Positions 33,001 to 36,000 of a DNA stretch of 64,000 bases are shown here, in pieces. The stretch is from IMG/VR virus record IMGVR_UViG_2537562172_000006; one strand, written 5' to 3'. This stretch comes from a virus. Taxonomy: Duplodnaviria; Heunggongvirae; Uroviricota; Caudoviricetes. The position numbers are program-made. Within the stretch, counting starts at the first letter, position 1. Every line of letters begins with the position of its first letter.

Positions 33001-36000
33001 TTACCCGCCCGTCGATTAAATCATGGCACGAGCTACAAGCAATCGCTGCCTGCATATCGTGTGGCTTTATCGCTGTTCCGCACGTTCCCGCCAGTCGGTA
33101 ATGCGCCAGCACAGACGTTTCCGGATCGTGATTGCAGTAGCCAGGAATTCTGACGGTGCACATCTGCCCCCGCGCCGCTTTACGTAAGTCCACCATTACG
33201 CAAACTCCAGTAGCTGCGCGGCCACATTTTCGACTTGTTCCGGAGAGGAAAATTTACGGAACAGGATCCAGTTCCACAGCACATTCAGCACAGATTTATA
33301 AACCTGCTGAAACTCGGTTTCGTCCATATTCGCAAACGCGATGGATTTCGCCCGACGCCCGCGGCTACCGTCCGGATAAATATGCTCGGTGTAAAATCCG
33401 GCCTGAATGGTTACCCACTCGCGGAAAGCCTCAAACGACTTTAGCAATGCCGTATCCCGGGTTCTGCGTGTCGCAACTGTATTCAGATATTGCTCTGCGG
33501 CTTCGCTCAGAGCTGGCGTATGTTCCCGGCCTACTGATTCACACAGGTAATCAACGAATCCTGAAACCAGTTTTCGTTCGCGAGGCGTGATCGCCCCTCC
33601 GACCGGAGTCCAGTAATCGAATCCGAGTTGCAAAAGTTTGAAAAAACGCTTATGGAATGCGTAGTTACGAACGCGCTTAAAATCAGCGTGTATCCACTCG
33701 CCTATTTTGATTTGATGCAGAAAATCGCAACTCTCCGGCGTCGCCGGGAGAAGTAAACCAGAAGAAGTTTGTTTGACCAGTTGTATATGCGCCATTGTTA
33801 TCTCCAATGGCGCTGTAGGTTGCCAGTTGTTCAGGCTGGCTTACGAATTATAACTCATTCCCGAACCACCTTGAAACCGAGCCTTTCCAGGTATTCAATG
33901 AATGCCTCGATAGATAAAATCACATGATCATCAGGAATTAACGTTGTGTAGACAACTTTCCCATTCTCAACGCGCACAGCATAGAGGCCATTTTCACTAA
34001 AAATTTCACGCAATTCTTCGATTTTCATCTTCAGAATCCTTCCAGATAAATAGCTCTCCCCTTCTCAGGGTCCATCCCTCTTATCCCTGCGCGCTACTTA
34101 AGAGCCTCGATTCTAGCCGTGAAGACATACCGATCAACAGCAATAAGCCATCTGAATAACAAAATTAGCCACCCACACCAGTACAGGCAGACGGAAAAAA
34201 CTCACTGAAAAAAACAAAAAACCCGCCGAAGCGAGTTTAGTGCGGGTGCGTTGAGGATGCCTGACACATCAGAGGTGGCGAGGGATTTCTCCCCCGCCGG
34301 GTCTCTTACTCCTCAGGTTCGTAAGCTGTGAAGACAGCGACCTCCGTCTGGCCGGTTCGGATTCGTACCTCGCAGAGGTCTTTCCTCGTTACCAGTACCG
34401 TCACTATGACGGTTAAACAGATGACGATCAGGGCGATTAACATCGCCTTTTGCTGCTTCATAGCCTGCTTCTCCTTGCCTTTCGGCACGTAAGAGGCTAA
34501 CCTACATTTGTGAGACATAGATTGGGCCTCAGATTAATGTTAAGCGTCTTGCAGGACGCGTAATGTTAACTGGGGCTTTTCTCTATCTGCCTTTTGGTGT
34601 TCATGCCCGAGGCAGATAGCCTCAAGCACCCGCAGCAATTCTACTTAACTCTCCTTTTTCCGCAAACCGTTTTTGCTCACCATGATAAGTCGTTATTGTA
34701 ATTAATTGACATAACGATTAGTCAAAACTCAATTTTTTGCGCTGGTCTTGCATTTAATATCCAACATTCTTGATGAGTGTGGTGCGCAATCAATAAATTT
34801 TGTAGTTGTGTTTTTTTGGCTTTATAATTTAACTCATTTGTCGTATCAATTATCCAATTCCCTGTCCCCGAAGAAGCCAGTGCCATGAGTTTATTACACT
34901 CTGCATGCATATTAATTATCTCACCAAACATATCTGTTTTTGTTTTTTTATTCACAAAGTTAGTAAAAATACCAGCATGCTTATAAGAATCCATTACAGT
35001 ATAACGGCCATCACCATCTACATCAGAAGGTTTTGACATCCATTTAAAAACATGAAGGAGAAAAATATTGGCCGTCCAAGGAAATTCATCTCCATCAAGA
35101 AACGTTTCAGTAGTCGCTATACTCAGACTCTCAGTAAGATTAGTCGCCCCAATTAAAACAACCTCAGGCTCGCCATCCTTTCTTTTACCCGCCCCAACAA
35201 AATTGAACGTACCTGCATAACACTGTCCAAAATAAACAATAGCATTGTTTAAATTAGGTGCTCCTTTTAAAGCCTTGAGAAGTTGATGAGGAGTAATAGG
35301 ATTTTTTGCATCCAGTCCTTGTGGGCAACCATGACCAGTAACAAACATTACTATGTTATTGTAGTTATTATCACGCAAGTCATTAAAGAAATCTGCTGAT
35401 GCTTTTGACGCATAAGGATACTTCGAGGCTGATGAAAAAAAATCATCAAAATTCCTGTTAGGGCTGTCAATATATATTGATATGTCTCGTGGATTTATAC
35501 CGGCCTTCTCAAGACATAGCACGCCAAAAACAATATCCAAAACGTGGCGCGATTCAACTTCTTCTTTAGAACAAGGCAAAAACATAACCCATTTCGTACG
35601 CTCAGACCTAAGGCTCATACATATCCTTATGATTCGAATGTTTTAAGTTAAAATTTTGTTAATATTTAGGAGGCATTGCATTACTGAAAGATGGTGGCTT
35701 TGGTATATCAATAAAGTAAAAAAGCTCATCGATGCTTAAATGTTCAGTAATTTGGGTGGACGTTATTTGCCCTCTTTCATTCAAACCAAATATTTCATCG
35801 CCAGTTTTCAGAAAAAACACCACTTCAAATGTTGTGGTTACTTCATGCGCATAAGATTTGAACAGCATCCACTGCCCGAGATTCACACACTCTTTTACTG
35901 AATCAGAAGTATCAGGTAACGCTGACGACTGTAGCCCTGTGAATTTCATCATTTATCCTTATGAATCCGCATACGACATTCTAACAACATGGTATTTTTA

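Follow-up and report, generated by a model that had tools for sequence, protein, structure and literature searches.

A hok/mok/sok toxin-antitoxin module, very probably complete, in a Rac-like prophage of Escherichia coli

Is the hok gene found in virus record IMGVR_UViG_2537562172_000006 the toxin of a complete type I toxin-antitoxin module or an inactive relic, and if it is complete, what would it do for the prophage that carries it? The window considered here, that is, the whole stretch of 64,000 nucleotides that was analysed, matches the chromosome of E. coli ETEC1747 with 100% identity (record NZ_CP122722.1; strain from pig faeces, Belgium). A sequence-only reading had placed a hok-family type I toxin locus inside the prophage of this window, and that placement is supported by a Hok/Gef peptide, a Mok frame, a Sok gene, the tac/fbi and tac/ucb pairings of an RNA switch, a terminator and the prophage context. 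We find that positions 34208-34666, with hok and mok on the minus strand, very probably constitute a complete hok/mok/sok module of the hokD/hokW subgroup in a Rac-like prophage. The locus is complete and self-contained and, unlike the K-12 loci, has no insertion sequence (IS) element, frameshift or deletion. It belongs to a known family and is not novel: the coding sequence is already annotated by PGAP in NZ_CP122722.1 as hokD (WP_042634465.1, a 100% match to the window locus), members of the family are common, and experiments have characterised a near-identical relative.

The coding part of the locus consists of the toxin gene, a leader frame and a short motif within both.

34306-34461, minus strand: hok toxin coding sequence, 51 aa plus stop codon, peptide MKQQKAMLIALIVICLTVIVTVLVTRKDLCEVRIRTGQTEVAVFTAYEPEE, with the Shine-Dalgarno (SD) sequence AAGGAG at 34476-34471.
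34306-34518, minus strand: mok-like leader open reading frame (ORF), 70 aa, taken from the ORF list, with the SD sequence GAGG at 34530-34527, 8 nt upstream.
34318-34323, minus strand: TACGAA, encoding Tyr47-Glu48, a motif for A-to-I editing by TadA that would recode Tyr to Cys.

The canonical 51-residue Hok of the earlier reading holds up well. The peptide matches Pfam PF01848 (HOK_GEF) over the whole model (E=2.1e-23; 82 bits, cutoff 22), and it carries C15, T17, L29, E31 and E40, which are invariant among the K-12 paralogues, as well as C30. A second match of Hok, to Pfam DUF6232, was under the cutoff and was rejected. Taken together, the Pfam E-value, the Rfam E-value of the leader (4e-28, see below) and the 100% match to annotated hokD exclude a chance match. 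The K-12 HokD coding sequence, 98% identical to the window copy, is toxic in an assay (bioRxiv 10.1101/2025.08.07.668861).

An upstream overlapping frame had also been described, and a 70-aa ORF does begin upstream of hok, but it is not a separate reading frame. Mok is instead an in-frame N-terminal extension of Hok that shares its stop codon, with 57 nt between the two ATGs, unlike the arrangement in plasmid R1. Its ATG at 34518 coincides with the annotated starts of K-12 mokC and 933W mokW. By analogy with related loci, we assume that translation of hok would be coupled to that of mok here. The TACGAA motif is constant in all 26 of the aligned hok loci described below, third codon positions included, and its presence suggests that the hok mRNA may be edited by TadA at Tyr47; editing of K-12 hokD mRNA has been reported at 6% (PMC12214031). 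The TACG editing motif was also examined for a surrounding hairpin of the tRNA-Arg type, but this was rejected, local folding giving no support (z = +0.8).

The transcript that would carry these frames is bounded by a promoter and a terminator of its own.

34638-34666, minus strand: candidate hok/mok promoter, with a -35 element TTTGCG (34666-34661), a 17-nt spacer and a -10 element TAGAAT (34643-34638).
34216-34631, minus strand: predicted full-length hok/mok mRNA, about 416 nt.
34277-34298, minus strand: stem-loop of the 3' untranslated region (UTR), GGCGGGGGAGAAAUCCCUCGCC, helix 12 of the consensus structure (8 pairs, 3 of them compensatory, 96% of cells paired).
34208-34238, minus strand: intrinsic hok terminator, a GC-rich 8-bp stem (34238-34219) followed by a T run to 34208.

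For the mRNA, we placed the 5' end where the match to Rfam RF01794 ('sok') begins and a conserved GGGYGCUUG lies, and the 3' end at the terminator. RF01794 matches 34631-34456 (minus strand) over its full length (1-157) with 120.1 bits against a gathering score of 59. The match runs along the hok-sense strand as far as the hok AUG, and so does that in the R1-type plasmid locus L059 (232-403, plus strand), so the model covers the hok mRNA leader and does not indicate the direction of Sok. Transcription of hok is predicted to start near 34631, 7 nt past the -10. In the aligned loci a TAnnAT-type -10 stands at a constant distance from the conserved GGG 5' end, and the hok promoter region is identical to the region upstream of 933W hokW. 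The hok and Sok promoters were thus assigned because of their homology to hokW/sokW and their conserved spacing, not by a promoter scan. The hok promoter of R1 is weak and constitutive. The one site that the scan did call, at 34137-34110 (minus strand), lies downstream of the terminator and was rejected as being at chance level (1 found, 0.7 expected).

The terminator noted in the earlier reading was recovered as an 8-bp stem with its T run, and the terminator scan returned 2 terminator-like sites against 0.7 expected in shuffled sequence. The hok terminator is common to phage mEp460 and locus L010, while 933W has other sequence in its place. The second terminator-like hairpin (34169-34190, minus strand) lies about 30 nt past the first, and this tandem pair precedes the rem fragment and the Q-like region. 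By analogy with the R1 model (PMC9841398), the 3' UTR stem-loop would form the hairpin that protects the 3' terminus of the processed mRNA. Rfam matches to isrK (27 bits, gathering score 50), rsmX and ceN48 in the 3' UTR and terminator were under threshold and were rejected as chance; for isrK and rsmX it is mainly the terminator hairpin that aligns.

Homology to other elements that carry hok ends near 34675 on one side and, on the other, near 34243 (933W) or near 34208 (mEp460, L010), and these breakpoints point to a mobile unit of about 470 bp. The box of 34211-34520 drawn in the sequence-only reading does contain the features named for it, but its extent is too short: it ends at the mok start codon, leaves the strand (minus) unstated and omits about 150 nt, namely the hok promoter, which extends to 34666, and the 5' leader at 34519-34631 with tac, ucb and the larger part of the Sok gene.

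Within the transcript, the elements of an RNA switch can be assigned as follows.

34620-34631, minus strand: tac (translational activator element), GGGUGCUUGAGG, the first 12 nt at the mRNA 5' end.
34572-34578, minus strand: ucb, or anti-SD, AAGCCCC, from folds with and without the 3' end.
34244-34256, minus strand: fbi (fold-back inhibitory element), CCUCAACGCACCC, which pairs with tac.
34493-34531, minus strand: Sok target hairpin of the processed mRNA, in which the mok SD GAGGC pairs with the dcb GCCUC (34497-34493).

The 416-nt transcript folds with a minimum free energy (MFE) of -172.7 kcal/mol (z = -7.6 versus shuffles), its 5' and 3' ends pairing with each other. In this full-length fold tac pairs with fbi, and ucb pairs with the mok SD region. 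When the 3' end is removed in silico (34631-34257, without fbi and the terminator), the tac/ucb pairing GGGUGCUU:AAGCCCC and the mok-SD/dcb pairing GAGGC:GCCUC form. The two folds correspond to the closed full-length and open truncated conformations of the mRNA that have been described for plasmid R1 (PMC9841398). In isolation the Sok target hairpin folds at -12.1 kcal/mol (z = -2.7), and the 5' end of Sok could base-pair with its loop, CUCACAA.

Conservation of this structure was assessed in related loci gathered by a search with the single Hok peptide. The alignment comprises 26 leader-intact loci from Escherichia, Kluyvera, Pseudocitrobacter, Citrobacter, Pantoea, Photorhabdus, unclassified Enterobacteriaceae and the phages 933W and mEp460. 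Loci L011, L012 and L025 were excluded as leader-less (L025 being joined to relE as in K-12 hokD), L018 as a hokC locus with a divergent 3' flank, L042 as decayed, and L039 and L044-L047 as partial matches. RNAalifold finds the helix between the 5' and 3' ends unprompted, and at one of its tac-fbi pairs 18 loci have U-A and 8 have C-G. Across the 26 loci the 70-pair consensus structure has 96.6% of cells paired, versus 39-48% when the partners are slid. Compensatory changes occur in 17 pairs, as compared with 1-9 after sliding and 8.5 ± 1.6 after shuffling, and none of 500 shuffles reaches the observed number. Because an unpaired fbi base shifts the register between lineages, the tac-fbi duplex was also computed locus by locus. 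A 12-bp duplex was found in 26 of 26 loci at -18 to -26 kcal/mol, whereas shuffled 5' ends average -13.5. Variants of tac are matched by variants of their own fbi (GGGCGC/GCGCCC, ..GAGA/UCUC.., ..GAAG/CUUC..). The tac-fbi pairing is therefore conserved by covariation, and such covariation across genera argues for ongoing selection on the RNA structure.

The antitoxin gene lies on the opposite strand, within the leader.

34475-34503, plus strand: Sok promoter, with a -35 element TTGCCT (34475-34480), a 17-nt spacer and a -10 element TAACCT (34498-34503).
34510-34580, plus strand: predicted Sok-like antisense RNA of about 71 nt, in which a single-stranded 5' tail of 14 nt precedes a hairpin (34524-34578) and a U tail.

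The Sok promoter segment and the corresponding sokW promoter region of 933W do not differ at any base. In Sp5, the sokW -10 was mutated by Takada et al. (primers YO-421/422; probe YO-597) and antitoxin activity was lost (PMC8621323); the toxicity of HokW and the antitoxin action of its Sok likewise rest on experiment there. The annotated K-12 sokC maps onto window positions 34510-34586, and the annotated 933W sokW (71 nt) maps onto 34510-34580. The predicted 71-nt RNA folds at -29.2 kcal/mol (z = -5.3) and is complementary to the mok SD and start codon.

The window copy can be compared with several known loci. The hokW-mokW-sokW locus of 933W/Sp5 (AF125520; experiments in PMC8621323) has about 94% DNA identity to it from the hok promoter to fbi. 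The Sok promoter (TTGCCT/TAACCT), hok SD, tac, ucb, dcb and fbi are identical in the two, Mok is in frame and 70 aa long in both, the 51-aa Hok is 90% identical to HokW, and both loci are found in lambdoid prophages. They differ in Mok codons 2-4 (SHK in the window, LNT in 933W), in the 5' tail of Sok and in the C-terminus of Hok (TAYEPEE versus VDYESEK in HokW). Downstream of fbi the sequences are unrelated, the window locus having its own hairpin terminator, and the map positions also differ, the window locus lying in the nin region, co-oriented with the early-right operon, and that of 933W at the right end of the map.

Another relative is K-12 HokD (relF, Qin prophage), which shares 50 of 51 residues (98% identity; the single substitution is A22V). 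The 2 loci have the same 3' UTR, fbi and terminator, and the same downstream order of hok, rem and DUF1367 (ydfU), although only an N-terminal fragment of rem is present in the window. The DNA shared between K-12 hokD and the window begins only about 14 nt before the hok ATG. Its promoter, tac, ucb, mok start and the whole of sok are replaced by the 3' end of relE, while all of these are kept in the window. Upstream of hokD K-12 has relBE, whereas the window has a legumain-like cassette. Judged by its sequence, the window copy is best regarded as a hokD allele that has kept its leader, and as the leader-intact counterpart of the truncated K-12 gene it offers a natural control for studies of hokD or relBEF.

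Other loci are more distant. K-12 hokC (gef)/mokC/sokC has the same leader architecture, in-frame Mok and Sok position, and its Hok is 80% identical; however, its Sok hairpin is 18 nt shorter, an IS186 just downstream removes fbi, and it is a core-chromosome and not a prophage locus. K-12 HokB, HokA and HokE are 35-40% identical to the window Hok. The hok/mok/sok (parB) module of plasmid R1 has the same order of elements (tac, ucb, mok SD, dcb, hok SD, Hok, fbi and terminal hairpin), with fbi about 60 nt past the stop codon in both, and RF01794 matches both leaders (87 bits for the R1 type). It differs in that its Hok is 42% identical, its Mok and hok are in different frames (ATGs 56 nt apart, versus 57 nt in the window), its tac is GGCGCUU as opposed to GGGUGCUUGAGG, and it is plasmid-borne with demonstrated post-segregational killing. 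Mok is in frame in mokC and mokW, as their shared stop coordinates show, and in the window; it is out of frame in mokB and the R1 type.

The family is common. Matches were found in 4728 of 5426 complete E. coli genomes, at a median of two places per genome and with at least 80% coverage in 2202 genomes, as well as in 110 phage and 1599 plasmid records. A survey reports hok in about 80% of Enterobacteriaceae genomes and a four-fold enrichment in prophages (bioRxiv 10.1101/2025.08.07.668861). That lambdoid prophages carry hok/sok was already known, since it is annotated in 933W (AF125520), was characterised in 2021, and its prophage enrichment is given in a 2025-26 preprint. For the present locus PGAP gives only the Hok coding sequence, and the mok ORF, sok RNA and hok mRNA boundaries complete the annotation. 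Near-identical hok copies also occur in a 275-bp contig of 'Acinetobacter idrijaensis' and a 431-bp contig of 'Xanthomonas pisi' (L019, L024), and in an 'Actinobacillus phage' record (PP818812.1, 98.9% identity); these 3 records most likely represent E. coli or prophage contamination, or a mis-assigned host.

Several points weigh against the view that this is a complete, working module. The evidence here is that of sequence and in-silico folding, and MFE folds of RNAs of about 400 nt are weak evidence by themselves, so that the support comes from covariation. In a generic sigma-70 promoter scan neither the hok nor the Sok promoter reaches threshold, and both have weak features (TAACCT as the Sok -10, TTTGCG as the hok -35). 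Earlier work, as reported in bioRxiv 10.1101/2025.08.07.668861, found the chromosomal hokA, hokB and hokC to be without post-segregational killing and not activated by rifampicin. The prophage itself contains an IS4-like ISVsa5 insertion (about 26650-27858) and a frameshifted small terminase subunit gene (about 25128-26218). Given these 2 lesions the prophage is probably defective, and a phage-release role of the hok module may be moot here.

If the module works as in plasmid R1 (PMC9841398) and hokW-sokW (PMC8621323), from which we infer each step, a stable full-length hok mRNA would accumulate that is translationally silent and unable to bind Sok. Slow trimming of the 3' end would remove fbi and open the mRNA. 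Sok, which would be unstable but constitutively made, would then pair with the mok translation-initiation region, blocking translation of mok and of the coupled hok and leading to cleavage by RNase III. Once Sok synthesis ends, whether by loss of the element, a block of transcription or prophage induction, the processed mRNA would be translated from mok into hok, and Hok would insert into the inner membrane and depolarise it. The role of such a module is most likely either selfish maintenance of the prophage or of its cargo, or killing and assistance of lysis on induction.

An important question is which of the roles proposed for hok loci fits this copy. The earlier reading had cautiously suggested stabilisation of the prophage, persistence or abortive infection. 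It is possible, though we hold this tentatively, that the main role is played at prophage induction, with Sok being lost on RecA-dependent induction, Hok arriving early at the membrane, and lysis and release proceeding faster. The closest experimental parallel is hokW-sokW, about 94% identical in DNA, whose deletion put off growth arrest by about 40 min and cut phage release by half; there, Sok was lost upon RecA-dependent induction, and Hok preceded the endolysin by about an hour (PMC8621323). The window hok is co-oriented with the early-right operon, and the terminator scan found no terminator-like site upstream of it. Set against this parallel, the prophage here is probably not fully functional, the Hok C-terminus and 3' terminator differ from those of HokW, and the genome position (nin region) is not that of 933W (right end).

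A more speculative and rather doubtful reading is that the module may sense induction by promoter occlusion, in which antiterminated read-through would run into the convergent Sok promoter, silence it and add hok-sense RNA. After circularisation of the 933W genome across att, hokW has the same orientation as the pL/N/int operon. Takada et al. left the cause of the disappearance of sokW on induction unexplained (PMC8621323). Occlusion, if true, would account for both the RecA-dependent loss of sokW RNA and the early appearance of Hok.

Anti-phage abortive infection, in which a lytic phage would stop host transcription, Sok would decay and Hok would kill the cell before the burst, is unlikely to be the main role. 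The R1 hok/sok system on a high-copy plasmid is cited in PMC8621323 as having cut T4 plating efficiency by 42% and plaque size by about 85%, but this effect is modest and was measured at high copy number. The locus does adjoin a variable cargo slot, filled by the legumain-like two-gene cassette here and by relBE in K-12. On the other hand, PADLOC gave no match for the four neighbouring ORFs tested, hok stands beside the peptidase cassette only in the closest relative examined, and hok is not enriched near known defence systems (12% versus 9.4% expected; bioRxiv 10.1101/2025.08.07.668861).

There is little likelihood that the locus is an inactive relic, intact in appearance but silent or non-toxic like the chromosomal hok loci of K-12 and without present function. 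All K-12 hok loci save hokB are described as inactivated (PMC12214031), and the reported lack of post-segregational killing by hokA, hokB and hokC (bioRxiv 10.1101/2025.08.07.668861) would fit such a reading, as would the defective look of the host prophage, with its IS4-like insertion and frameshifted terminase gene. However, the K-12 lesions are visible ones (IS186 by hokC and hokE, IS150 in mokA, relBE in place of the hokD leader) and none of them is present in the window, where each regulatory element is intact and matches functional hokW-sokW. The covariation of the RNA structure across genera likewise argues for ongoing selection. A persistence or stress-tolerance module like hokB, with dormancy through membrane depolarisation by Hok, is hardly to be expected, since despite the link of HokB to (p)ppGpp-induced multidrug tolerance (PMC12214031) and the conserved TadA motif at Tyr47, the window toxin and HokB share only 35% identity, K-12 hokD shows a low editing level of 6% (PMC12214031), and our literature look-up gave no persistence data for HokD/HokW-type toxins.

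The complete hok/mok/sok module remains the preferred reading. The prophage is Rac-like, integrated adjacent to ttcA, and extends over roughly 744-49253 of the window, with intR/xisR beside ttcA at one end and tail-fibre genes beside uspF at the other. The hok locus lies in the nin-like region of this lambdoid prophage, in the same orientation as the early-right operon. Upstream of it, in order of transcription and at falling coordinates, are a cro/ydaS-like gene, ydaT, ydaV and genes for DUF1627, Ea22-like and DUF4014 proteins, followed directly before hok by ORFs of 210, 97 and 298 aa. Downstream are, in order, the N-terminal fragment of Rem, DUF1367, DUF1364, a Q-like DUF1133 gene, toxin genes, lysis genes and the terminase. 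The rem fragment downstream of hok confirms a Qin-like synteny.

34722-35618, minus strand: 298-aa legumain/caspase-like (clan CD) ORF, identified by homologue alignment and structure search.
35659-35952, minus strand: 97-aa ORF, the partner gene of the cassette.
33855-34028, minus strand: Rem-like 57-aa ORF, with the first 26 residues 73% identical to K-12 Rem (19/26) before it diverges; a partial pseudogene according to PGAP.

The sequence-only reading was also right about a peptidase-like neighbour, as the gene next to hok encodes the 298-aa legumain/caspase-like protein. This protein had no match in Pfam, PADLOC, PHROGs, NCBIfam or a PDB sequence search, and its legumain-like fold was revealed only by alignment of homologues and a structure search. 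Its 266 homologues, among them proteins from Enterobacterales, Vibrio, Pseudomonas, Burkholderia and Xanthomonas, share the dyad of G-H96-G and Q-C133-x-A-G and a DxDGD motif, both of them invariant. In the structure search the AlphaFold model of the 298-aa protein (pLDDT 94) matched legumain, GPI transamidase and metacaspases, the best match being 7fql_E (E=1e-8, TM of about 0.5). In most contexts examined a conserved gene of 93-100 aa lies 18-40 nt upstream of the 298-aa homologue. Every context examined is a prophage or mobile-element region, and most are without hok. The pair, which is conserved, could be a defence or toxin module of a kind not yet characterised. Since the peptidase cassette is present without hok in L052-L058, the idea that the two are functionally linked was rejected. 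The cassette occupies the slot held by relBE in K-12 Qin, and the hok module of about 470 bp marks the downstream edge of this swappable cargo slot; more speculatively, it may serve as an addiction module for whatever the slot contains.

A second type I toxin-antitoxin system, ralR/RalA, is present near the int/xis end of the same prophage.

47897-48075, minus strand: RalA (Rfam RF02694, 215 bits).
About 47326-47520: ralR, a PGAP-annotated RalR toxin gene.

The presence of 2 type I systems (hok/sok and ralR/RalA) in one prophage is relevant to deleting or curing it. Elsewhere in the prophage, the IS/terminase span (22354-27858, -/+) also includes an Acb1-family anti-CBASS gene at about 22354-23790. 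Genes for a scabin-related ADP-ribosyltransferase and a subtilase-family AB5 toxin B subunit, at 30761-31979 (minus strand), lie between the Q-like antiterminator and the lysis genes and are a candidate prophage-borne AB5-type toxin pair; we take this slot to be the one where Stx-converting phages carry stx. Two further Rfam matches are above their gathering scores: sRNA-Xcc1 at 8971-9055 (plus strand, 70 bits), in an intergenic gap of the prophage tail/baseplate region, and FnrS at 52372-52489 (minus strand, 135 bits), in the chromosomal flank.

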